36,257 nucleotides of DNA from Patescibacteria group bacterium (GCA_038062295.1 JBBTXL010000045.1:1-36257), one strand, 5' to 3'; positions 3,123-27,742 are shown, numbered from the stretch's first letter. Numbers and translations: made by a program. The notes: generated by a model not told the origin, from the sequence alone.

Positions 3123-4265
3123 ATGCATCCACTTGCCATTATTATTGTCTTGTCCATTCTTATCGGCGCGGTGCTGGTGTTTTCCCCGCTGTCGGTACGG
3201 GACATGATCGCGTCATTCCCCCTGTTCCAGGCGGTTGTTCAAACGCAGGGTGAGGCGGGCGTGGAAGAGCCGCGCGCGAACATTTTTCGTTCCATTGAAA
3301 GCGGTCGGGTGTGGTTTCCTCAGGTTGCCGTGGATGCCGGGCAGAATATTCCCGAAGTGACCGTTCTTGATCTTGCGATGGACATACTTGACCCCAACAT
3401 CGTGTATGCTGGCACGGAGGGCGCGGGGCTGTATAAAAGCGTGAACAACGGACAGAACTGGGATAAGTTGTTTGACCGCAACAAGGTGCTGGCCGCTAAC
3501 GCGACGGTGTACCGCATGGCGCAAGACCCCAACAATGCGGAGAACATCTATATCGCGGCGTTCCAGAACAAATACGGCGTTTTTTTGAAATCGACCGACG
3601 GCGGATTGTCGTTCGCGCAGACCTATATTTCCCAACTGGAAAATTATCCGTTGCGCGCTCTTGCGATCCATCCGGTATTGGGTAATATACTCTATATTGG
3701 AACTGCGCAGGGCGGCGTATTTGTATCGCGGGATTACGGCGAAACGTGGGAAGTTTTGAAGTGGCTCACCGGGAAGATCTCGGATATTGTCATCAATCCG
3801 GAAAACCCGTCGGAAATGTATGTCGTAACGTCCGACCGCGGTTTGTTCCGGTCCGTTGACGGTGGGCAAACCTGGGACAGTCTGGCACGGCAGCTCTCGC
3901 GCGTGACCGCATCCAACAACATCATTGCATTCCGCATGGATCCCGCAGACAGCAGGGTGTTGTACCTTGCGGTCGCCAATGGTTTGGTCGTTTCCGAAAA
4001 CCGCGGGACTACATGGCGGTTCGTTGACCTACTCATCCCACCCCGCCAACTTCCCGTGGATGCGATCGCTCTCAGTCCCCAAAACCGTAATACAATATAT
4101 GTCGGGGTCGGTGCACTGCTCTATATTTCCGAAGATGCGGGCGTCAACTGGAGCGTGCAGAAGTTCAATACGCAAAAGCGTATCAATATTATCACGGTAG
4201 ATTATCGCGACGAGCAGAATATTTTTATGGGAATGAAAAATCCCCAGCGCCAGTCATCGCTGTAG
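3123..4265 (+). CDS. Membrane-anchored BNR/Asp-box beta-propeller protein
   Basis: N-terminal hydrophobic helix 'MHPLAIIIVLSILIGAVLVF', then six Asp-box-like motifs: SVNNGQNW, STDGGLSF, SRDYGETW, SVDGGQTW, SENRGTTW, SEDAGVNW. Confidence 0.75.
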   Translation: MHPLAIIIVLSILIGAVLVFSPLSVRDMIASFPLFQAVVQTQGEAGVEEPRANIFRSIESGRVWFPQVAVDAGQNIPEVTVLDLAMDILDPNIVYAGTEGAGLYKSVNNGQNWDKLFDRNKVLAANATVYRMAQDPNNAENIYIAAFQNKYGVFLKSTDGGLSFAQTYISQLENYPLRALAIHPVLGNILYIGTAQGGVFVSRDYGETWEVLKWLTGKISDIVINPENPSEMYVVTSDRGLFRSVDGGQTWDSLARQLSRVTASNNIIAFRMDPADSRVLYLAVANGLVVSENRGTTWRFVDLLIPPRQLPVDAIALSPQNRNTIYVGVGALLYISEDAGVNWSVQKFNTQKRINIITVDYRDEQNIFMGMKNPQRQSSL

Positions 4266-12287: not shown

Positions 12288-13043
12288 ATGATTACGCACA
12301 AAGACCTGGAACGGTTCGGGTTGTCGGAAAAAGAAGCGCGGGTGTATCTCGCATCGCTGGAATTGGGGCCGGCAACGGCTGCGCAGATCGCGCAGAAAGC
12401 GGGCGTGAACCGCGCGACCACGTATGTGGAAATAGAATCGCTCATGAAGATGGGGCTTGTCAGCACCCATGAAAAGAACAAAAAGACATTGTTTACGGCC
12501 GAGGACCCGGAAGCGTTGAAGCGCATTCTCCAGCGGCGTCAGGAACGGTTCCAGCGTGCGCATCAGGCACTCAATGAACTGTTGCCAGAACTTTCCAATC
12601 TCTATCACTATGCCGGAGAAAAACCAAAAGTGCGATTTTTTGAAGGAAAAGAGGGATTGCTTACCATGCAGGAAGATTTTTTGAAAACGAAAGACAAAAT
12701 GATAGAGGGTCTCTACAATGTTGATAACTATCATAAAGTGTTTTCACGAACCGAACGCGAACAGTATTATGCAGTACGGTTAAAGAAAAAAATTCACGGG
12801 AGAACGCTCTACAACCGTGAAGCAGGTCCTTTTGACAGTCCGGACAAAATTACCGAAGACCGTTTTGTGTCCACAGATAAATTCAATTTTTCAAGCGATA
12901 TTACTATTTATGACAGTAAAGTTGCGATTGCCTCGCTCCGGGGAAAATTGATGGGGGTCATTATTGAGAATGAAGAAATTGCAAACACGGTGCGAGCTCT
13001 CTTTAGGTTGGCGTGGGATGCCGCAGAAAAATATCAGAAATAG
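12288..13043 (+). CDS. TrmB-family winged-helix transcriptional regulator (251 aa), paralog 1
   Basis: N-terminus 'LERFGLSEKEARVYLASLELGPATAAQIAQKAGVNRATTYVEIESLMKMGLV' is a TrmB-type HTH. Alignable over its length with the ORF at 22676-23431. Confidence 0.8.
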   Translation: MITHKDLERFGLSEKEARVYLASLELGPATAAQIAQKAGVNRATTYVEIESLMKMGLVSTHEKNKKTLFTAEDPEALKRILQRRQERFQRAHQALNELLPELSNLYHYAGEKPKVRFFEGKEGLLTMQEDFLKTKDKMIEGLYNVDNYHKVFSRTEREQYYAVRLKKKIHGRTLYNREAGPFDSPDKITEDRFVSTDKFNFSSDITIYDSKVAIASLRGKLMGVIIENEEIANTVRALFRLAWDAAEKYQK

Positions 13044-13057
13044 GTGCGGGAAAAGTG

Positions 13058-13090
13058 AAAACCGGGGATCGTTTTTCGATCCCCGGTTTT
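13058..13090. terminator. Bidirectional intrinsic terminator
   Basis: Perfect 14-bp stem aaaaccggggatcg / cgatccccggtttt with a ttttt loop. A/T runs on both sides. Confidence 0.85.
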
Positions 13091-13477
13091 GTTCATCCAT
13101 GCGAGTTGGTAGATATTAGCACGGACGAGTCTTATGGTCTTCCGGCGCCCATCTCGCCCTCCTTTTGGTTGGGGGAGGGAGTATAGATGGGCGAAAACGT
13201 TTTCTCACGTTGATTCGCTTCACTTTCGACGCCACAGAAACCAGTGGAATTTGGTAAAGTTTCCCGCTTTTTCCGCGTATTCACAAGTTGCTGGCCTCGC
13301 GCCAGCGTGAACATCTCGTTTTGCCGGCATTCTCCTAAAAATGCTTTGCCAGCAGTTTCGGTTTGGTTGAACTGCCTTTCAGTCGTAAAAACCAACGTTT
13401 TCACCCCCTTTCTTCCCCCCATATTCCCCTTAAACCCAATGTTTAAGGGGTTTTGGTAATGTACGAACAGCTTACCA
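13091..13477 (-). ncRNA. Candidate leftward transcript (structured RNA, or mRNA for a 96-aa ORF at 13132..13422)
   Basis: Lies between the minus-strand consensus promoter (13484-13511) and bidirectional terminator 13058-13090. Many hairpins, e.g. ccccttaaac/ggtttaagggg, gctggc/gccagc and cgcccatct...agatgggcg. The ORF product is low-complexity and basic. Confidence 0.25.
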
Positions 13478-13483
13478 TCGTCC

Positions 13484-13511
13484 ATTATACTCAAATACAG
13501 TTTTTTGTCAA
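13484..13511 (-). promoter_or_regulatory. Consensus sigma70 promoter firing leftward
   Basis: Minus strand reads TTGACA (rc of 13506-13511), 16-nt spacer, TATAAT (rc of 13484-13489). Confidence 0.7.
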
Positions 13512-13644
13512 TAGGCAATAACAATTTCTAAATATTTTTCTTTAAGTCAACTGTTGTCATAAATTATCAACACTATATATTATCAATAAAATAGCTTAAA
13601 TACTGTATTATTTAGCAATTATTGTTATTACTTGTTTAAAACTA

Positions 13645-13672
13645 TTGACAAAATAATAAAAATGAGTATAAT
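13645..13672 (+). promoter_or_regulatory. Consensus sigma70 promoter firing rightward into the 13.8-19.1 kb gene string
   Basis: TTGACA (13645-13650), 16-nt spacer, TATAAT (13667-13672), inside a visibly AT-rich tract. Confidence 0.75.
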
Positions 13673-13789
13673 GCCCGAGGTAAGTGACAAAAGCACCTTG
13701 AAACCAAAGGAAATTCAACGAAACCAAAACCCCTAACCATTTCCTCTGTCGCGTAAAGCTATGGAGGATACAAGAAAGGAGGTGATTGG

Positions 13790-14098
13790 ATGAGCGACAC
13801 CCGGCAGGAGCTTTACTCCTGCAGTGTCACCGGCTGCGGCACCACAGGCCCTGCGGACCGTATGTACTCTCTTGATAAGAGAGCTACAAGCGGAAAGCGG
13901 GTAGTGGTATGCCCCCCGTGCGGCAAGCTGGCCTGGAAAGAGGGAATTCGGACATACAAACTGTCTGACACCCTCCGGTACGAGGAACAGCAAGCCATGA
14001 AGCGCGGTTTCTTCCAGCCGTTCACGCGGTCTCTCGCGAAAGCGGAGGCCCGAAAGGACGGCAACGGCAAGAAACCCAAGCTTCACGCGGTTGGCTAG
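13790..14098 (+). CDS. Small zinc-ribbon protein (102 aa), uncharacterised
   Basis: Perfect SD AAAGGAGGTGA (13775-13785), 4 nt before the ATG. 'CSVTGC...(25)...CPPCG' four-Cys ribbon and a basic C-terminus. Confidence 0.7.
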   Translation: MSDTRQELYSCSVTGCGTTGPADRMYSLDKRATSGKRVVVCPPCGKLAWKEGIRTYKLSDTLRYEEQQAMKRGFFQPFTRSLAKAEARKDGNGKKPKLHAVG

Positions 14099-14201
14099 CG
14101 CAGACCGGACGCGTCAATCTCCGGCCAAGGCACCGGAGTTGCCCAAAAACCCTTGGGTGTCAAAGCATGGGTGCGATAGGGTTCTGCAAAATTTCGCAGG
14201 A

Positions 14202-14278
14202 CTCCCTTCCAGAGCTTGTCTTTACGACAGCGTCCCAGAGACGAAAAGCCACACACTTAGGCTGTCTCTGGAAGGGAG
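14202..14278 (+). repeat. SD-mimic stem-loop, copy A
   Basis: ctcccttccagag (14202-14214) is perfectly complementary over 13 bp to ctctggaagggag (14266-14278). Confidence 0.8.
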
Positions 14279-14326
14279 ATTGGCTCCCGCACAGTTCTTT
14301 CAAACCCGAGAGGAGGTGGTTACCGA

Positions 14327-14416
14327 ATGGTAAAACAGATCGTTGTCGCGGCTCCAAAGTGCCAGGCCGCCGGGTGGCATAAAAACTGCCCGTTCTGTCA
14401 GGCTCGCAAGAGCTGA
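14327..14416 (+). CDS. 29-aa Cys/His mini-protein MVKQIVVAAPKCQAAGWHKNCPFCQARKS (below the ORF-track cutoff)
   Basis: SD GAGGAGGTGG (14310-14319), 7 nt before ATG 14327. C12..H18..C21-x2-C24 knuckle. Stop TGA 14414-14416. Confidence 0.45.
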   Translation: MVKQIVVAAPKCQAAGWHKNCPFCQARKS

Positions 14417-14493
14417 CGCTGGCCATGAGGGGACGCACATGTGCGCCAAGGAGTTCCCCTCACTCAATAGAGCCAAGCAAAAAAATCGTTTGG

Positions 14494-14537
14494 CTCCCTT
14501 TCAGAGGCTTGAAACGATTCAAATTTCTGAAAGGGAG
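14494..14537 (+). repeat. SD-mimic stem-loop, copy B
   Basis: ctccctttcaga (14494-14505) is perfectly complementary over 12 bp to tctgaaagggag (14526-14537). Inner hairpin ttgaa-acga-ttcaa. Confidence 0.8.
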
Positions 14538-14633
14538 AAATCCCGAAGTTCTTTGAAACAACAGCAGCGCAGGGCTGCGAACGGGACGACGCCGTGTTTC
14601 GGTCGAGCCATCAACCTTCAAAGGAGGTGAATC

Positions 14634-15149
14634 ATGAGACAAGTCGGCTTCGTTACCTACAATTCCGTAGGGGACGGAGTGGCTGACGGCTGGCATAAAG
14701 CCGAAGATCGGCAAGCGTACGTGCTGCAAAACAGCAAAGGTGAACGCTTCGCAGTCGATGGAGTCAACGGAGGGGAGTTTGAAACCCTCTTTGAACTCTT
14801 CGAAGGCAAGTTTAACCGCGCTGATGGCAAGTACGCAGACGGCGTGAGTGACGAGATCAACGCCATCTGGAGGAAACTCCAGGCGGTTGTGAATGATCTT
14901 GATCACCTCGTGGTCTACGTCGGTTCGGCCGGGTCAGAGCGCGCCATTGAGCTCGCGAGGCAACTGCCTGCGTCCAAAGTCACCTTTGTCGGCTGTGATT
15001 GCGGGCTTCCCTTCAAGGAAGCTCTCATCCAGAAGGCTGGGTTGACCAAGGCGGGGCGGGTGCTGTGTGAGTGCGGTGGACGCCGGACCATGAAAGCGAT
15101 CTTTGATCGCTTCATGAAAACCGGTGCGCTTCTGCCTGCCAATGCCTAA
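14634..15149 (+). CDS. Hypothetical protein (171 aa) with paired C-x-C-G motifs
   Basis: Perfect SD AAAGGAGGTGA (14620-14630). The C-terminal half looks alpha/beta ('LVVYVGSAGSERAIELARQL') and carries 'GCDCG' and 'LCECGG'. Confidence 0.75.
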   Translation: MRQVGFVTYNSVGDGVADGWHKAEDRQAYVLQNSKGERFAVDGVNGGEFETLFELFEGKFNRADGKYADGVSDEINAIWRKLQAVVNDLDHLVVYVGSAGSERAIELARQLPASKVTFVGCDCGLPFKEALIQKAGLTKAGRVLCECGGRRTMKAIFDRFMKTGALLPANA

Positions 15150-15336
15150 GCTGCTCTTCCATCCTCATACTGCCATGTAAAATTGCTCCTGCGACATGGC
15201 GCAGGCGATGAGACTGTCGCGATGACAGGCTCCTCGTGAGCGGGGATCCGCGATAAAAAGAGAGAAAGATGGATTACTCTCCATAAATCCGGGCGAGACC
15301 GCAGGTGTTATTTGTGGGAAGGAAACAAAACCCTTC

Positions 15337-15370
15337 CCGCCTTTCTTGAGACGCGAAAGAGATTTGGCGG
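15337..15370 (+). repeat. SD-mimic stem-loop, copy C (degenerate)
   Basis: ccgcc/ggcgg outer stem with ctttc (15341-15345) / gaaag (15355-15359) inner stem. Followed by the agttcttttcaaac motif at 15385. Confidence 0.5.
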
Positions 15371-15704
15371 TTCAAGTTGAGGAAAGTTCTTTTCAAACAT
15401 TCAGATTCTGGAAGCGGCCCGCTCCAGAGACGGAACACCTTATCTGCTTAGGATGTTCTTAACCTTGGAAAGTATAGCCAAGGTTAGCCCGTGATGAGGG
15501 TGTCAAGCAGAAGGGTACAAGATGCCGGCATGCATCTTGTGGCGAGGAGCCAAGGGGAGCTGAACACAGGTGCACCTGTGTCCCTAACGAGATAGGGCAA
15601 CTTCTTCCTCTCGCGGCCGCACCGTAGGGAGGTTTATAGAGGTCGGATCCCCTCTAAGAAGGCCTGTCTCATTGCTAAATGGGACTACGAGAAAAAACTC
15701 GTAG

Positions 15705-15750
15705 TCCCGCTTTCAGAGATCTTGAGGAAACTCGAGATTTGCGAAGGGGA
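15705..15750 (+). repeat. SD-mimic stem-loop, copy D
   Basis: tcccgctttc...gcgaagggga imperfect outer stem. Inner hairpin atcttgag-gaaa-ctcgagat (15719-15738). Shares 'ctttcagag..cttg' with copies A, B and F. Confidence 0.6.
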
Positions 15751-15878
15751 ATTAGCGTAGGGCTGATTCCAAAGTTCTTTTAAATCAAACCGTAAAGGAG
15801 GTGGGGCACACTCCACCAAAAAAGGCGCACGCGGCTACGACCGCACTCGCCACAAAGAACATATGAGGAGGCACAACG

Positions 15879-15911
15879 ATGCATAAACTTACCTCCTCTC
15901 CCTTTCAGTAA
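15879..15911 (+). CDS. Micro-ORF MHKLTSSPFQ (10 aa), putative leader peptide
   Basis: SD GAGGAGG (15865-15871), 7 nt before the ATG. Its last codons form the left arm of stem-loop E. Confidence 0.3.
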   Translation: MHKLTSSPFQ

Positions 15912-15947
15912 CCATTTGAGACAAAGAGAGAGTGGTTACCGAAAGGG
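15900..15947 (+). repeat. SD-mimic stem-loop, copy E
   Basis: ccctttcagtaacca (15900-15914) versus tggttaccgaaaggg (15933-15947): 14 of 15 paired. Confidence 0.7.
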
Positions 15948-15992
15948 AAAAAAGACAGTACATTTAAAAACCAAATAACAGGAGGATGAACC

Positions 15993-16412
15993 GTGGTAAA
16001 AAAGATCGTGGTTGTGGAAGATAACCCCGTCGAGCTACAAAAGGCGTGCGATTTGGTTGCGGCGCGCGGCATGATGCCGCTTCCGTGCGCAACCCACAAG
16101 GATGCGATTGAAAGCATTCTCAGCTATCAACCGAAAGGATTGGTTGGTATTCTTACCGATTTGCACTTCCCGATCGCGGAAGGCAAAAACCCGGAAGGCG
16201 CGTGCGGTTTGCATGTGGTGCACCTTGCGCTCACGATGGGTATGCCGGTCGCTATTTGTTCCGATATCGACCATCACTACGCCACATGGGCAAACGATCT
16301 TGTGCGCGATGTTGAAAAGGCAACCGGCAGAAAAGTTGCCGGATTTATTCAAGACAGCAAAAATTGGGAGAAAGCGCTTGCGCTACTCCTCGACGAAAAG
16401 GAGGAACGGTGA
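15993..16412 (+). CDS. Stand-alone CheY-like receiver (REC) domain protein (139 aa)
   Basis: GTG start 6 nt after AGGAGGA. 'KIVVVEDNP' (acidic pair), 'ILTDLHFP' (phospho-acceptor Asp), 'VAICSD' (conserved Ser/Thr). Confidence 0.8.
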   Translation: MVKKIVVVEDNPVELQKACDLVAARGMMPLPCATHKDAIESILSYQPKGLVGILTDLHFPIAEGKNPEGACGLHVVHLALTMGMPVAICSDIDHHYATWANDLVRDVEKATGRKVAGFIQDSKNWEKALALLLDEKEER

Positions 16413-16768
16413 CGACGGAAAAGAAAAACTACAACGTTTTGTTTGTATCCGAAATGGCGCCGGTCAATGCCGCCATGGACAGGATACTCAACCAACTTTT
16501 CTCTATTGGTGAAGTATGTGGTTTGGAAGACGCCGAAGATAAGATCTTTGCCGGCAACTACACGCACATCATTGTGATGGGAGAGTTCAGGTCGAACACC
16601 CCCAGCAAGGGTAGAGATTTTTATCAGCTTTTGAAACTACGGCTTCCGATCTGGAGAAAGGACGCCAAGGTTCTCAAAAGTGGCATGGATAACATCCAAG
16701 ACGACCCGGACTATGTCTGCATCCTGAATTTTCTTCCCGGGTTCATTCAGTGGGTCGAGTCGCACTAA
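16409..16768 (+). CDS. Receiver-like (degenerate) domain protein (about 119 aa)
   Basis: GTGA overlap with the REC gene stop; AAGGAGGA upstream. A beta-alpha pattern ('NVLFVSE', 'HIIVMGEF') without the acidic pocket. The start could instead be the ATG at 'SEMAP'. Confidence 0.55.
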   Translation: MTTEKKNYNVLFVSEMAPVNAAMDRILNQLFSIGEVCGLEDAEDKIFAGNYTHIIVMGEFRSNTPSKGRDFYQLLKLRLPIWRKDAKVLKSGMDNIQDDPDYVCILNFLPGFIQWVESH

Positions 16769-16769
16769 T

Positions 16770-16813
16770 AACAGTTCGACAAGCTCACCGAAACAGTTCG
16801 ATACACTCACTGT
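16770..16813 (+). repeat. Tandem 22-bp direct repeat (2 units)
   Basis: aacagttcgacaagctcaccga / aacagttcgatacactcactgt: 17 of 22 identical. The first 10 nt and the 'ctcac' block are conserved. Confidence 0.75.
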
Positions 16814-16830
16814 AAAAAGGAGGTGATGGG

Positions 16831-16869
16831 GTGAAGTTCTTCTATCCCGTTGGATTTGTTCAGGAGTAG
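16831..16869 (+). CDS. Micro-ORF MKFFYPVGFVQE (12 aa)
   Basis: GTG start 7 nt after the GGAGG core of perfect SD AAAGGAGGTGA (16816-16826). Peptide-level paralog of the micro-ORF at 23647-23679. Confidence 0.4.
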   Translation: MKFFYPVGFVQE

Positions 16870-17288
16870 GGAGCCTCTGTCATGAAGGGGAACACGGGGT
16901 CCGGCGGTGCTCAACCGTCGGGAAATCGGGACCAGAGAGATTGACCAGGACGGAGTCCTGGTGTGATCACTGGAAAAACCCGTTGTTTCTTTCCAGATTC
17001 CGTCATGCTGCCTGGGGGGTGTCCCTATATGCGGGACGAAGCCCGTACCAGCTTTTGCGCTCTCCCTTGAGAAAGGAGAGGTCGGCAACGGTGGCCCGTG
17101 TGTTCCAAACTTCGGTTTGGACGACGGCGGCAGTATGGCGCGAGGTGCAGACGTATCGGAGGAACCTCGTGAGAAGAATCTGGCGCGGCCGGTGAAGTGC
17201 AACGCACTGCGGAGCTTGGGGGCGGAACAACCCGCGGTGAGCCGGTAAGGAAACTACCCTTCATGCATGCTCGGTTTTATCAACCACT
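16870..17288 (+). ncRNA. Candidate ~0.4-kb structured RNA / leader
   Basis: 9-bp long-range helix catgaaggg (16881-16889) / cccttcatg (17257-17265). Local stems at 16944-16962, 17060-17080 and 17105-17120 (the last with a UUCG loop). ORFs listed here look like composition artefacts. Confidence 0.35.
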
Positions 17289-17309
17289 ATGAACGAAAGG
17301 AGGCACACA

Positions 17310-17606
17310 ATGTCGTGCGAAGAAATGGAGCCGGAATGGCAGGAAATTGAGCAAGAAGTTGAAAAGGTGGTTGAAGCGCTTCCGGAGCTGCCACCCAAAG
17401 AAGTTATCATGGAGGAAATTCATATGGAGACCCACAAGCTCGTTGACCTCCAGAAAGTCATTTTCGGGAAACCGAATCTGAAGCGCGCAGAAACTGCGGC
17501 GCTTATGAAAAGTGCGGCGAGAAACATCCTTGCCAATATCAAGGCGGGCGCCGCCAAACATCTTCCTGTGCATGTGACAGGCAACTCCCGCCAACGGGCG
17601 GGATAA
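17310..17606 (+). CDS. Hypothetical acidic protein (98 aa)
   Basis: ATG 17310 lies 6 nt after AAAGGAGG. The listed 17289 start has no SD. Confidence 0.65.
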   Translation: MSCEEMEPEWQEIEQEVEKVVEALPELPPKEVIMEEIHMETHKLVDLQKVIFGKPNLKRAETAALMKSAARNILANIKAGAAKHLPVHVTGNSRQRAG

Positions 17607-17630
17607 AGGGGTAAGGAGTAACATATCTTT

Positions 17631-17699
17631 ATCCCTCTTTCAGAGCTTGCCAGAACTATATTTTTGTGGTATACTGTTCTGACAAGTTGCGAAAGGGAT
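17631..17699 (+). repeat. SD-mimic stem-loop, copy F (carries a promoter in its loop)
   Basis: atccctctttc...gcgaaagggat outer stem. Inner stem cttgccagaac (17646-17656) / gttctgacaag (17676-17686) with one mismatch. Confidence 0.6.
17647..17675 (+). promoter_or_regulatory. Sigma70-type promoter with extended -10
   Basis: TTGCCA, 17-nt spacer, TGg-TATACT. Shares the 13-mer tggtatactgttc with the promoter at 12272-12285. Confidence 0.6.
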
Positions 17700-17728
17700 C
17701 TTTGAAAAACAAATAAAGCGGAGGGGAG

Positions 17729-17962
17729 ATGAAAACACAGGAAGAGATACAAAGCGACCTCGTTGCGATACTGGAAAGCCATGGCGACGTGAAAGGTTAT
17801 ATTGCAAGTCTTATCGACCCGTTGCCATACACGACGCCCGAGGAGAAAGCAAGTAAAAATAGGAAAGCCGCGGCAGCGATTATGGCGTACGGTTCGTTTG
17901 AACGCGGTCTCTTTAATGTTGATATGCTTGCTGAAATATTACATAGAACTATCAACCCCTAA
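17729..17962 (+). CDS. Hypothetical protein (77 aa)
   Basis: ATG preceded by GCGGAGGGGAG. Stop TAA overlaps the SD of the next gene. Confidence 0.6.
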   Translation: MKTQEEIQSDLVAILESHGDVKGYIASLIDPLPYTTPEEKASKNRKAAAAIMAYGSFERGLFNVDMLAEILHRTINP

Positions 17963-17975
17963 AGGAGGTGAGAAC

Positions 17976-19055
17976 ATGGAGATGAGTTTGTCGTTGCGGC
18001 AAAGCCCGATGCTGGAATTGCGGCAGGCGCTGGAGAGTTCGCTTGAGCAGTCACTTATGGTACGGCATGAACTCCAGATGGCCATGGTGTTGTATCAGAA
18101 GCGGGAAGATGTATGCACCCGTCTTTACAAAAACGCTCTCAAAAAGGGTATGGTGAAACAGTACGCTCGGCACGACATGCAGTTTGAATTCGCGCTGGTG
18201 CGGAAGAAAGACGTCCCGGAGTGGATCTGGAAAGACTGCGGCCACGCGTTTTCCCATTGTCTCATGAAAGGATGGGACTGCTTCTTTTTCGGAAGCAAGT
18301 ATGCTATGGCGCGTGGGAGCTGGTTACTCTTTGTCATCCATGATTTTCACCGCGAACCGATGCCGGACAGCGCTGTCGGGTATGCAGCGGTACATGAGCG
18401 TGGAGAGATGGTTACGTTGGGAGATCACAACCTGGCATCCAAGCTCGAATTTTCGATCGCTGCGAAGGAGAGCAAGCTTAAGTGGTACATCGAATGGATC
18501 AAACAGACATGTCCGGAGAAATTTGCCGACATATTCAGCTACCAGACCCACTTCGTGCTGCCCGAGGGCGAGGAACTGCGTCAGACGCTCGAGGTATTCC
18601 AAGCATCTAAAGAAGCTCGGAAAGTAAAACAGCTGATCGAAGAATTTGAGTGGCCGTTGACGCTGTTGAAACTCCTCAAACAGTACGATGACGCAAACCG
18701 GCAGGCGCTTGGAATCATTCTGGATATGTTCTTGATGGCCGGCGATGTGGCGATAAAGGCCAATGTTTCCGTCATTCAGACGGTTGAACATATCAAGGCG
18801 GTTTTCCAGCGCGGGTTTTCCGAAATGACTTCCCAAGATCTCAAAAGGTACTTGAGCATTGTTCGGTTGGAAGGACGATGGAAAGATCAGCGCAATGAGC
18901 TGGGGAATAAGTTTTCCGAGATGTTGACCAGGAGAGAGAAACTCTTGGGCATTGACCGCTATCTTCGCGAACTTGATGCCGCGAGGGTAACAAATTCTCT
19001 TCCCACAGACGGCATTCTCTCTCCGGACTTTCGGGAAGTCCTCCGATATATATGA
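17976..19055 (+). CDS. Hypothetical protein (359 aa)
   Basis: ATG 17976 lies 5 nt after AAAGGAGGTGA (17961-17971); the listed 17802 start overlaps the previous gene. Contains 'CGHAFSHCLMKGWDC'. No family recognised. Confidence 0.75.
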   Translation: MEMSLSLRQSPMLELRQALESSLEQSLMVRHELQMAMVLYQKREDVCTRLYKNALKKGMVKQYARHDMQFEFALVRKKDVPEWIWKDCGHAFSHCLMKGWDCFFFGSKYAMARGSWLLFVIHDFHREPMPDSAVGYAAVHERGEMVTLGDHNLASKLEFSIAAKESKLKWYIEWIKQTCPEKFADIFSYQTHFVLPEGEELRQTLEVFQASKEARKVKQLIEEFEWPLTLLKLLKQYDDANRQALGIILDMFLMAGDVAIKANVSVIQTVEHIKAVFQRGFSEMTSQDLKRYLSIVRLEGRWKDQRNELGNKFSEMLTRREKLLGIDRYLRELDAARVTNSLPTDGILSPDFREVLRYI

Positions 19056-19060
19056 ACATG

Positions 19061-19108
19061 GCCCGCCAAGGTTTTCAAAACAACGAGAACCGCGGCGGGC
19101 TTTCTTTT
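19061..19108 (+). terminator. Intrinsic terminator after the gene string
   Basis: gcccgcc (19061-19067) / ggcgggc (19094-19100) plus ggtt/aacc, followed by tttctttt. Confidence 0.7.
19065..19108 (+). repeat. Direct repeat, left copy (flanks the ABC gene)
   Basis: gccaaggttttcaaaacaacgagaaccgcggcgggctttctttt. 41 of 45 aligned columns are identical to 20937-20981; the last 22 nt are identical. Confidence 0.85.
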
Positions 19109-19138
19109 CGTACCGCACCATACTAAACTTATGAAGTT

Positions 19139-20936: not shown

Positions 20937-20981
20937 GCCAAGACTTTTTAAAACAACGGGAACCGCGGCGGGCTTTCTTTT
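20937..20981 (+). repeat. Direct repeat, right copy
   Basis: gccaagactttttaaaacaacgggaaccgcggcgggctttctttt. It lacks the upstream gcccgcc arm, so it folds poorly as a terminator. Confidence 0.85.
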
Positions 20982-21002
20982 ACGTTTACTCCCCAGTGGG
21001 GT

Positions 21003-23774: not shown

Positions 23775-24344
23775 ATGAATATGCCAACCTTGGGAGTAAA
23801 CATCGCGATAATCCAAAACGGCAAGGTGTTGCTCACGAAACGTGAAGATTTTGAAGTGTGGTGCTTGCCGGGCGGCGGAGTGGATGCGGGCGAGTCGGTT
23901 GCAGAAGCGGTGATTCGCGAAACAAAGGAGGAAACGGGGCTTGATGTCCGGCTGACAAGAATGGTAGGAGTATACTCGCGGCCGCACTGGCTGGAGAATG
24001 GCGACCATACGGTGTTGTTTACAGCAGAAGTAGTCGGCGGGAACCTAAAACCGGAGGCGCGCGAGGTGGTGGACATCGGTTTCTTTGAGCCGCACCAACT
24101 GCCCGAGCCACTTATCTGGTGGTACCGCGAGCAGATCCACGATGCGGTGGGCGGAATAGTCGGAGTGACGCGCACGCAACACATCCCGCAGCCGTTCGGC
24201 AAAGGGGTGAGCATGCGGGAACTGTACCGGATACGCGATAAAACAAAAATACCCCGCCAGCAGTTTTTCCTTCGCCATTTCCAAACACCGCTTATCGTTC
24301 ATCCAGAGCGTATCCTGAAACGGATGGCTCTGGATGGGAGATAA
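23775..24344 (+). CDS. Nudix hydrolase
   Basis: Nudix box 'GGGVDAGESVAEAVIRETKEETGL'. ATG 23775 chosen because it follows hairpin 23738-23767; ATG 23781 is also possible. Confidence 0.85.
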   Translation: MNMPTLGVNIAIIQNGKVLLTKREDFEVWCLPGGGVDAGESVAEAVIRETKEETGLDVRLTRMVGVYSRPHWLENGDHTVLFTAEVVGGNLKPEAREVVDIGFFEPHQLPEPLIWWYREQIHDAVGGIVGVTRTQHIPQPFGKGVSMRELYRIRDKTKIPRQQFFLRHFQTPLIVHPERILKRMALDGR

Positions 24345-24411
24345 GCTCCCGAAAGCTCTTTCACAATAACCCGCACGTCCGACGGCTACAATATCGGAGA
24401 AGGAGGGAATA

Positions 24412-26767: not shown

Positions 26768-27520
26768 ATGGGACCAGATGACTTTCCACAGAATATTCCG
26801 TCGGAGCCGCAGAAACGTTTTGAAGAAGATGTTTTACAGGAAGAGCAAGACTCCGAAATAATGCCTGAACCGGAGGCGACCGTGCGCGAACGGCAGGATA
26901 CGGAACAGAAGTCTGAAGCAGTTGCGCAGGAACCTGAAAATGTGGAAGCGGATGTTGTGCCGGAAACCGTGATGTCGCAGGGTCAGGGTGAACAGATACC
27001 AAAGCAAGAACTGGAGGAGGGTGCTGAAAGAAAGCAAGAGCAGGAGATTGTCGTAGAAAGACAAAAGGTACAGGACTTTATAGATGCTGGCAGAAAATTG
27101 GTGCGCGCATTACGGGCGCGGGAGGAAGAACGCCTCAATTCACTTATTGATGAAAGCAATGTTATGCTGTTGGTGCGGTCTCTTGATAACGTGCAGGAAC
27201 TGCTGATGGATAACCAGCCGACGGTTGATAAGGCGGAATTTGAACGCGCGCTTGAAAAAACTGTTGATGCGTTGCGTAGCATCGGTGATGTGCCGCGTGA
27301 ACACAGTATGAGAGACAACGAAGAAAGTTTGGGAAGAATTGCTTCATATTTGAGAAATGTGGGTGACACGGCTCACGACATCGCGCTGTCGCTTGCAAGA
27401 GAAAAAGATGGACGGCTTGAACGTGCATTACATATACTGGACGCGTTGAAAGGCGCCGCAGACGATGGACGACTGTTTGTCAACAAAAAAAGAAACCAAC
27501 TCGAACAATATAGGAGGTGA
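26768..27520 (+). CDS. Hypothetical protein (250 aa): acidic disordered N-terminus, helical C-terminus
   Basis: Open frame 9 nt after the previous stop. E/Q/P-rich first ~100 aa. Confidence 0.65.
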   Translation: MGPDDFPQNIPSEPQKRFEEDVLQEEQDSEIMPEPEATVRERQDTEQKSEAVAQEPENVEADVVPETVMSQGQGEQIPKQELEEGAERKQEQEIVVERQKVQDFIDAGRKLVRALRAREEERLNSLIDESNVMLLVRSLDNVQELLMDNQPTVDKAEFERALEKTVDALRSIGDVPREHSMRDNEESLGRIASYLRNVGDTAHDIALSLAREKDGRLERALHILDALKGAADDGRLFVNKKRNQLEQYRR

Positions 27521-27523
27521 CAT

Positions 27524-27742
27524 GTGGAAAACAAGTTCTTTCAGACAGGCGAGGATCCGAAAGCAGATCGGTATATCAATGCCATTAAGGAGATCATGCG
27601 GTCTATTGGGGTGACCATAACATCGGTCTCGTTCAACCCTAAAACAAAGCAAGCGGAAATCAACGGTATTGTATTCCAAGTTCCGTTCCCGCTTTCGGAA
27701 ATCAAAGAAAAACTTCTCAAAAAGGGAGGGGAAAAAGAATAA
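27524..27742 (+). CDS. Hypothetical small protein (72 aa)
   Basis: GTG 27524 follows TAGGAGGTGA (27511-27520), which includes the previous gene's stop. Ends at terminator 27742-27768. Confidence 0.55.
   Translation: MENKFFQTGEDPKADRYINAIKEIMRSIGVTITSVSFNPKTKQAEINGIVFQVPFPLSEIKEKLLKKGGEKE

Follow-up and report, generated by a model that had tools for sequence, protein, structure and literature searches.

A conserved RNA hairpin leader ahead of small genes in Patescibacteria operons, in a slot also occupied by hammerhead ribozymes

Intergenic spacers in the genome of a groundwater member of the Patescibacteria hold repeated hairpins that are genuine members of a conserved RNA hairpin family, found ahead of many small genes in this group. 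They lie in a 36,257-nucleotide (nt) stretch of DNA (GCA_038062295.1 JBBTXL010000045.1:1-36257; hereafter the window), for which a preliminary description made from the sequence alone had listed six copies between positions 14202 and 17699. The repeating unit is larger than that description saw, because a conserved box follows the hairpins, a small hairpin (H0) abuts the main hairpin (H1) on its 5' side, and a third hairpin (H2) often overlaps the 3' arm of H1; the whole reads H0-H1-(H2)-box-Shine-Dalgarno sequence (SD)-start codon. In related loci, type III hammerhead ribozymes stand in the slot equivalent to H1. Our leading interpretation, which we hold tentatively, is that H0-H1-(H2)-box forms a leader cassette that segments or insulates polycistronic mRNA gene by gene.

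Inverted repeats occur at all six listed positions, every one on the + strand. Five of the copies are strong, with folding z-scores relative to dinucleotide shuffles of -3.0 (copy 1), -4.0 (copy 2), -8.2 (copy 4, with flanking hairpins), -5.3 (copy 5), and -3.7 (copy 6), and the string ttYcagag(0-2)cttg, described as shared, is indeed present in copies 1, 2, 4, and 6. Copy 3 (15337-15370) is weak and decayed (z -1.0, 10.7 bits, E 0.6), and its membership is credible from context alone because the same H0 (15316-15338) and the same box (15386-15398) flank it. Two hairpins that had been called related (17060-17080 and 13146-13193) fold but have no family match (E ~5). The core motif is enriched in the window (19 matches vs 7.1 expected, with 0 of 100 shuffles reaching 19) and is restricted to 14.2-17.7 kb.

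The search for relatives covered ~85 loci gathered through a 171-amino-acid (aa) protein encoded in the window, each oriented with that gene on the + strand. An exact-motif regular expression for the window arms had no match outside the same species, and a covariance model alone worked. This model (R1) was seeded with a hairpin-only alignment of copies 2, 4, and 5 and four copies from relatives; its E-values are rough, since the calibration was shortened. The seed copies score 54.6 bits (copy 2), 52.3 bits (copy 5), and 51.8 bits (copy 4), and R1 recovers the unseeded copies 1 (27.3 bits, E 9e-6) and 6 (21.2 bits, E 6e-4) along with a new, seventh copy at 24294-24342 (22.1 bits, E 3e-4). No further copies were found in ~13.5 kb of the same contig beyond the window. 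In all, R1 identifies 36 distinct copies on the + strand, spread over the window and 12 related loci (13 sources) and often forming arrays of up to five, with five each in loci L026, L078, and L024.

Covariation among these copies, a check that the preliminary description had proposed, favors a paired RNA. Paired cells make up 89.1% of the alignment fitted to the model; shuffling lowers this to 66.1% and sliding the partners to 36-55%. Compensatory double changes were found in 18 of the 20 H1 pairs. The + rows alone contain 542 Watson-Crick, 81 G-U, and 27 A-C combinations, and a G-U pair at CAGA[G]/[U]UCUG is conserved in 22 of 36 copies, with pyrimidines predominating in the 5' arm of H1 and purines in the 3' arm. 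R1 always scores lower on the minus strand (54.6 vs 31.1 bits for copy 2, 52.3 vs 29.0 for copy 5, 27.3 vs 20.5 for copy 1, and 21.2 vs 9.0 for copy 6), an asymmetry that is independent of the model-fitted alignment, and minus was the best-scoring strand for only 1-2 weak hits vs 36 on plus. Covariation, the excess of G-U over A-C, and the lower minus-strand scores together therefore indicate an RNA element transcribed from the + strand.

H1 is a stem of ~20 bp with a conserved base, YUUCAGAG/UUCUGAAR, and a variable tip. The 3' arm of H0 overlaps the first bases of H1, and H2 (GGGAG..CUCCC), seen in copies 1, 2, and 7, re-uses the end (GGGA) of the H1 3' arm. Between H1 or H2 and the SD lies the conserved box GUUCUUUNAAAC, U-rich and then A-rich, which in the window takes the form GTTCTTTNAAAC behind the hairpins at 14294, 14548, 15386, and 15774, with a variant at 17697 and hairpin-to-box distances of 0-20 nt. 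Every H1 copy sits between open reading frames (ORFs) or at gene ends. Of the 36 copies, 29 are followed within 110 nt by an SD and start codon, and 14 within 60 nt by a box of the form G[TA][TA]C[TA]TT; random positions give 45% and 4.9%. An H0 abuts H1 in 31 copies, against 54% at random. These downstream SD and start signals, together with the conserved G-U wobble, bear out the earlier proposal of selection on an RNA structure upstream of SD-led genes. The strict form of the box, GTTCTTTCAAAC, has nine matches on the + strand and none on the minus strand. In L038, L043, L045, L054, and L056 it stands 3-6 nt ahead of the SD of the 171-aa gene's ortholog (~50% protein identity) and is preceded there by other hairpins, for example CUCCCACGAGC...GCUCAUGGGAG.

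The preliminary description presented the hairpins as SD mimics whose arms resemble an SD and an anti-SD. This is true of the window copies but does not define the family, as GGGAG is not conserved across species; arms elsewhere read CACUUCAGAG/UUCUGAAGUG, CAUCUUCAG/CUGAAGAUG, or CUAUCAGAG/UUCUGAUAG, and the core conserved across species is YUUCAGAG...UUCUGAAR. The anti-SD-like element is instead the downstream box (UUCUUUC), which that description missed. Copies are more alike within loci (identity 0.70) than between loci (0.51), and this within-genome homogenization, combined with a conserved stem sequence, hints at a sequence-specific protein partner.

Fourteen type III hammerheads with an intact core, all on the + strand, were detected in five related loci: L016 (1766-1820, 2135-2189), L046 (2248-2302, 2640-2694), L049 (2732-2786, 3093-3146, 3475-3553, ~4052-4130), L064 (3038-3092, 3860-3914, 4886-4940), and L065 (~1995-2045, 2191-2245, 2529-2591). 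They match RF00008 with 31-48 bits (E 4e-8 to 3e-3), L047 has one weaker hit (639-689), and the range over all hammerheads is 29-48 bits. The same box lies behind 11 of the 14, and an H0 hairpin ends 1-5 nt upstream of nearly all. Hammerhead-plus-box and hairpin-plus-box modules occur together in one operon in L046, L016, and L047, with the same H0 and box; H1 and the hammerhead can therefore replace each other in a single slot. The predicted type III cut is a few nt after H0, so that the upstream RNA ends in H0 and the downstream RNA starts with the folded ribozyme, box, and SD. The window elements, unlike hammerheads, have no CUGANGA/GAAA core and no three-way junction. Searching with RF00008 gives no match at the gathering threshold, nor any in window positions 13000-18000 when E values up to 5 are allowed; CTGATGA..CGAAA is absent from the window, and the Rfam models for twister, twister-sister, pistol, hatchet, HDV-like, and hairpin ribozymes do not match the window hairpins. 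Any cleavage there would need a protein.

Of the roles that the preliminary description listed, a processing site is the best supported, because related loci carry hammerheads in the same slot. We hypothesize that the cassette is a portable RNA "cistron-leader" ahead of many small, fast-evolving genes, acting in the transcript to mark the cistron boundaries of a polycistronic mRNA. A cut close to where H0 meets H1 would give the upstream message a protective 3'-terminal hairpin, H0 (a stabilizer); the downstream message would then begin with H1 as its 5'-terminal hairpin (a stabilizer and insulator), followed by the box and SD. The box may provide an unstructured U/A-rich site for ribosome entry or tuning. 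In sister genomes the type III hammerhead would perform the cleavage in this slot; the window would depend on an endoribonuclease, cellular or operon-specific, that is either RNase III-like or sequence-specific. Even without cutting, H1 would still shield the downstream ribosome-binding site (RBS) from upstream sequence. We infer the occurrence of cleavage, the cut site, the enzyme, and the role of the box. The stems are long enough for RNase III, which calls for about two helical turns: the model has 20 bp, and the stems in the window form 15-20 pairs interrupted by 0-2 mismatches. The related loci L006 and L008 contain an rnc gene, and none was seen in the window.

Several points weigh against this proposal. 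Cleavage is deduced from sequence, H1 has no known nuclease determinant, and a conserved stem sequence is not an RNase III requirement. No dedicated nuclease candidate co-occurs with H1: the comparison of hairpin-type with hammerhead-type loci returned only the 171-aa protein and TrmB as shared gene content. The operon yields no nuclease candidate either, because its small proteins and the 171-aa protein gave no matches, the latter having no informative fold or family match. All hammerhead hits, at 29-48 bits, fall under the Rfam gathering cut-off of 48.5 bits, and sharing a slot with hammerheads does not prove a shared function. The loci were sampled through one protein family, which is not an unbiased view of genomes, and the 89.1% pairing comes from an alignment fitted to R1, which inflates it somewhat.

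The seven modules of the window, all on the + strand, differ in how complete they are. Module 1 consists of H0 (14180-14203), H1 (14202-14278; inverted repeat 14202-14214/14266-14278, a perfect 13 bp), H2 (14274-14288, GGGAG..CUCCC), and box GTTCTTTCAAAC (14294-14305), followed by an SD (14310-14319) and ATG at 14327 of a 29-aa ORF (14327-14416). Module 2 has H0 (14471-14495), H1 (14494-14537; 12 perfect Watson-Crick pairs, then G-U pairs), H2 (14533-14544), and box GTTCTTTGAAAC (14548-14559); its SD (14620-14629) and ATG (14634) lead into the conserved 171-aa protein. Module 3 is decayed, with H0 at 15316-15338, a weak H1 at 15340-15382, box GTTCTTTTCAAAC at 15386-15398, and no SD or ORF behind the box. 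Module 4 (H0 15681-15708, H1 15705-15750, H2 15748-15770, box GTTCTTTTAAATCAAAC 15774-15790) has an SD at 15794-15804 with no convincing ORF after it, and its H1 carries A-C and G-G mismatches beside CUUUC/GAAGG. Copies 4 (15705-15750) and 6 (17632-17698) are both built from CUUUC/GAAAG and an inner helix, with a 2x2 internal loop between.

Module 5 has H0 (15865-15898), H1 (15899-15948; inverted repeat 15899-15914/15933-15948, pairing 15 of 16), an A-rich leader at 15960-15979 that represents a degenerate box, and an SD (15980-15985) before the GTG (15993) of a 139-aa gene. A 10-aa mini-ORF, MHKLTSSPFQ (15879-15911), has its SD, GAGGAGG (15865-15871), sequestered in the H0 of this copy and its stop codon within the 5' arm of H1; it could encode a leader peptide whose translation opens the hairpin. 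Module 6 contains H0 (17600-17635, with the stop codon of the upstream gene in its 5' arm), H1 (17632-17698), and the box variant GATCTTTGAAAAAC (17697-17710), then an SD (17720-17728) and the ATG (17729) of a 77-aa gene. The expanded inner hairpin of copy 6 contains a promoter-like TTGCCA-17-TATACT with an upstream TG (17647-17675), and a transcript from this site would start in the H1 3' arm and so be without the 5' arm. The newly found module 7 (H1 24298-24340 within copy 24294-24342, H2 24336-24350 of the type GGGAG..CUCCC, box-like GCTCTTTCACAATAAC 24355-24370) overlaps the 3' end of a NUDIX gene and precedes an SD (24396-24407) and the GTG (24412) of a 242-aa gene.

Box-like sequences were also seen apart from these modules. 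One, GTTCTTTCAGAC at 27535-27546, lies just past the stop of a 250-aa gene (26768-27520) with no family hairpin ahead of it, and the 0.5-kb spacer behind it is highly structured. A 541-nt spacer (16769-17309) is likewise highly structured and without a gene; at 16770-16813 it holds a tandem 22-nt direct repeat, AACAGTTCGACAAGCTCACCGA / AACAGTTCGATACACTCACTGT, resembling two degenerate boxes (ACAGTTC...), with a strong SD and an ORF of only 12 codons behind it.

A translational riboregulator without any cleavage is the main rival reading, though we think it less likely than not. Alternative pairings, or a protein on the base of H1, would set SD accessibility gene by gene: the H1 3' arm (GAAAGGGAG in the window) would take as partner either its 5' arm or, further downstream, the UCCC (as H2) and the box CUUUCA, the anti-SD-like UUCUUUC of the box can pair with the true SD, and coupling to translation of an upstream ORF is possible. 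The box hexamer CUUUCA is the core of the H1 5' arm, and by repeating it the box gives the H1 3' arm alternative partners. The box pairs with SD purines in ~13 of 21 leader minimum-free-energy folds, but with -1 to -7 kcal/mol these helices are weak, and they do not surpass those of shuffles (mean z -0.57). The overlapping H2 mini-hairpin GGGAnnnnUCCC recurs in copies 1, 2, and 7 and in L030, L022, and L047, yet many modules (in L078 and L026) have no H2. Coupling would suit copy 5, where the 10-aa ORF ends within the H1 5' arm, and copy 6, where the upstream stop is within H0, and the higher within-locus similarity (0.70 vs 0.51) is expected if copies co-evolve with a species-specific binding partner. 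On the other hand, the SD-like GGGAG end is missing in most relatives, and the hammerhead variants have the same box without a decoy SD.

A narrower form of the processing idea, in which an as yet undiscovered endoribonuclease, Cas6-like and sequence-specific, recognizes the H0-H1-(H2)-box hairpin and is dedicated to cutting transcripts of the operon, seems to us improbable.

We consider it very unlikely that the copies are a selfish or recombinational DNA repeat, REP/MITE-like or an integron attC-like boundary, that shuffles gene cassettes without a role in RNA. Homogenization of copies within genomes fits such a repeat, as do the genes between copies, which are not conserved among loci and differ in order, and the existence of decayed modules and pseudo-ORFs (copies 3 and 4). 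A DNA repeat does not explain the strict orientation to transcription (36 vs 1-2), the conserved G-U wobble and the excess of G-U over A-C, which are meaningful only in the + strand RNA, the fixed distance to the SD and start codon, or the presence of an RNA enzyme in the equivalent slot of relatives, and no relatives were found in viral contigs. As a REP/MITE repeat the family fails on orientation, with 36 copies scoring best on plus and 1-2 weak ones on minus where both orientations are expected. Integron attC sites were rejected as well: the stem base is CUCCC/GGGAG or CAC/GUG rather than AAC/GTT, and there are no RYYYAAC/GTTRRRY core sites. Pfam scans of the window found no integrase, transposase, or tyrosine recombinase.

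Transcription terminators or attenuators, in which H1 or H2 with the UUCUUU of the box would give partial termination and grade expression along the operon, are similarly hard to credit. The U-rich start of the box lies 0-6 nt behind the hairpin in many modules (L038, L043, L054, L030, L024, and copy 4), and a terminator scan flags H2 plus box of copy 4 as terminator-like. However, the H1-to-box spacing is 10-20 nt in copies 1, 2, and 5 and in many relatives, or the box is absent; the same box lies behind hammerheads, whose stem III is short and open-ended; and true terminators in the window are GC-rich stems abutting T-runs, unlike H1. Terminator-like sites are not enriched in the region (11 vs 8.9 in shuffled sequence). 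As intrinsic terminators the H1 stems were rejected, since the scan flags none of them, only the copy 4 H2, and the distance from H1 to the T-run is 10-20 nt in copies 1, 2, and 5.

We give very little credence to a new self-cleaving ribozyme class, an H0-H1-(H2)-box catalytic fold replacing the hammerhead in many Patescibacteria operons: such a class would fit the hammerhead slot with its common flanking elements (Weinberg and colleagues reportedly arrived at twister-sister, pistol, and hatchet in 2015 by the same reasoning), the conserved nucleotides, the recurrent A-C and G-G mismatches at one position (copies 4, 5, and 6 and L022), and the absence of Rfam matches, but copy 2, L026 3699, and L022 1722 are near-perfect hairpins without an internal loop or junction for an active site, the conserved nucleotides are base-paired, and many copies can do without H2 and the box.

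Patescibacteria, the candidate phyla radiation (CPR), are ultra-small groundwater bacteria. The window comes from a groundwater metagenome-assembled genome, its sequence forming part of contig CAYICE010000001.1 of GCA_964361915.1, and the same genes are found on contigs from Hainich groundwater 0.1-um filters. Housekeeping genes (RseP, an aminoacyl-tRNA synthetase assigned by Pfam domains, MreBCD, and PBP2) run up to a TrmB-family regulator at 12288-13043, identified by an NCBIfam match and precomputed Pfam annotation, with a Pfam match for a paralogue. The AT-rich spacer downstream of it contains two perfect (12/12) divergent sigma-70 promoters (13484-13672), one of which, TTGACA-16-TATAAT at 13645..13672 on the + strand, probably drives the operon holding copies 1-6. 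This spacer is packed with long imperfect inverted repeats (13505-13658) and is likely an operator region for the adjoining TrmB-family regulator. Beyond it begins a + strand run of small genes with unusually long spacers, in which the hairpins sit, and the order of TrmB, long spacer, and small-gene operon is kept in L006, L008, and L010.

The small operon proteins have no match in Pfam, PHROGs, NCBIfam, or PADLOC. The 171-aa protein (14634-15149) has homologues annotated only in Patescibacteria/CPR lineages, including Uhrbacteria, Lloydbacteria, Moraniibacteria, Falkowbacteria, and Yanofskybacteria; its AlphaFold model is confident (pLDDT 90), and neither model nor sequence has a significant match in the PDB. 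A tmRNA gene adjoins the 171-aa gene in relatives, complete in L010:6625-6967 and L027:53-402 and as a fragment-like match in L006:6839-6911, and tRNA genes flank several related loci. These neighbors hint that the TrmB/small-gene block lies at typical island-insertion sites. A search for tmRNA in the 843-nt spacer behind the 171-aa gene, its position in L010, found none in the window. A phage origin was rejected, as there are no relatives in viral contigs. Elsewhere in the window, an element AACG(A/G)GAACCGCGGCGGGCTTTCTTTT is repeated at 19060-19112, as the 3' half of a canonical terminator hairpin (GGCCCGCC..GGCGGGC with a T-run), and at 20950-20985 without the 5' arm. A gene cut off at the window start (1-342; L088:4909-5511) encodes a LigT / 2',5'-RNA-ligase-type 2H phosphoesterase (PF02834, PF13563). 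Such enzymes act on 2',3'-cyclic phosphate RNA ends, the chemistry left by ribozymes; the gene is 13 kb from the hairpins, and a link to them is only a thought.

Another subgroup of loci carries a different conserved leader directly upstream of the 171-aa gene, CGUAGCCAAGC-GGAAA-[variable hairpin]-GAGUACAUAAG-CUUGGUGAAUAACCGAAAGGAG. It occurs at L006:5895-6003, L008:4825-4933, L013:977-1085, L015:5895-6003, L037:5032-5140, L039:2311-2419, L061:5895-6003, and L050:14-121, has 18 predicted pairs, nine with compensatory changes, and no Rfam match. This second leader is a candidate new cis-regulatory RNA or riboswitch, and window positions 15470-15560 are a possible remnant of it.

The closest parallel to the hairpin modules comes from bacterial or prophage operons (Perreault et al. 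2011, PMC3088659), in which groups of hammerheads lie on either side of individual genes and cut polycistronic RNAs of ~2 kb in vitro. Both systems are arrays of RNA elements in the spacers of a same-strand small-gene operon, one per gene; unlike the clustered prophage hammerheads, the host context here is a Patescibacteria chromosome without viral relatives. RNase III processing hairpins also separate the early genes of phage T7, and 5' and 3' stabilizer hairpins are known from Gram-positive mRNAs. Like these, the window elements are intercistronic stems of ~16-20 bp downstream of one strong promoter, which would stay at the ends of processed messages with a strong SD near the 5' hairpin. In contrast to T7 RNase III sites, the base of H1 is conserved in sequence across distant lineages and includes a conserved G-U, and RNase III needs neither.

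Engineered 5'-UTR (untranslated region) insulators such as RiboJ (a hammerhead plus a hairpin) and Csy4/Cas6f hairpins likewise put a ribozyme, or a hairpin recognized by a nuclease, ahead of every RBS, so that cistrons are expressed independently of upstream sequence. Those are synthetic, and the hairpins here would be a natural counterpart. The RAGATH motifs that Weinberg and colleagues are said to have described in 2015, RNAs associated with genes associated with twister and hammerhead ribozymes, resemble the present family as conserved structured RNAs sharing neighborhoods and positions with hammerheads. The family differs in having no match to a RAGATH or other Rfam model, in being specific to Patescibacteria, and in being tied to a downstream box and SD. 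One of these motifs, RAGATH-18, has since proved to be a guide RNA for TnpB (PMC11061315). Against Rfam 15 the hairpins have no family match at gathering or relaxed thresholds, only chance microRNA-precursor hits, and a literature search found nothing relevant on such hairpins or on hammerheads in Patescibacteria/CPR. Intercistronic processing or stabilizer hairpins alongside ribozymes are a known kind of element; what appears to be new is this particular hairpin family, along with its box and its exchange with hammerheads.

Patescibacteria make up a large share of bacterial diversity, and to our knowledge almost nothing is known of their post-transcriptional control of gene expression. A lineage-specific conserved RNA family with a companion box, absent from Rfam, is now defined for them, along with ~15 hammerheads in operon spacers that standard annotation at the Rfam cut-off misses. 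For researchers on ribozymes and RNA decay, the family offers a concrete candidate that may be self-cleaving, nuclease-cut, or a plain insulator. It also suggests that natural operons may use the design of synthetic biologists, a ribozyme or hairpin insulator before every RBS.

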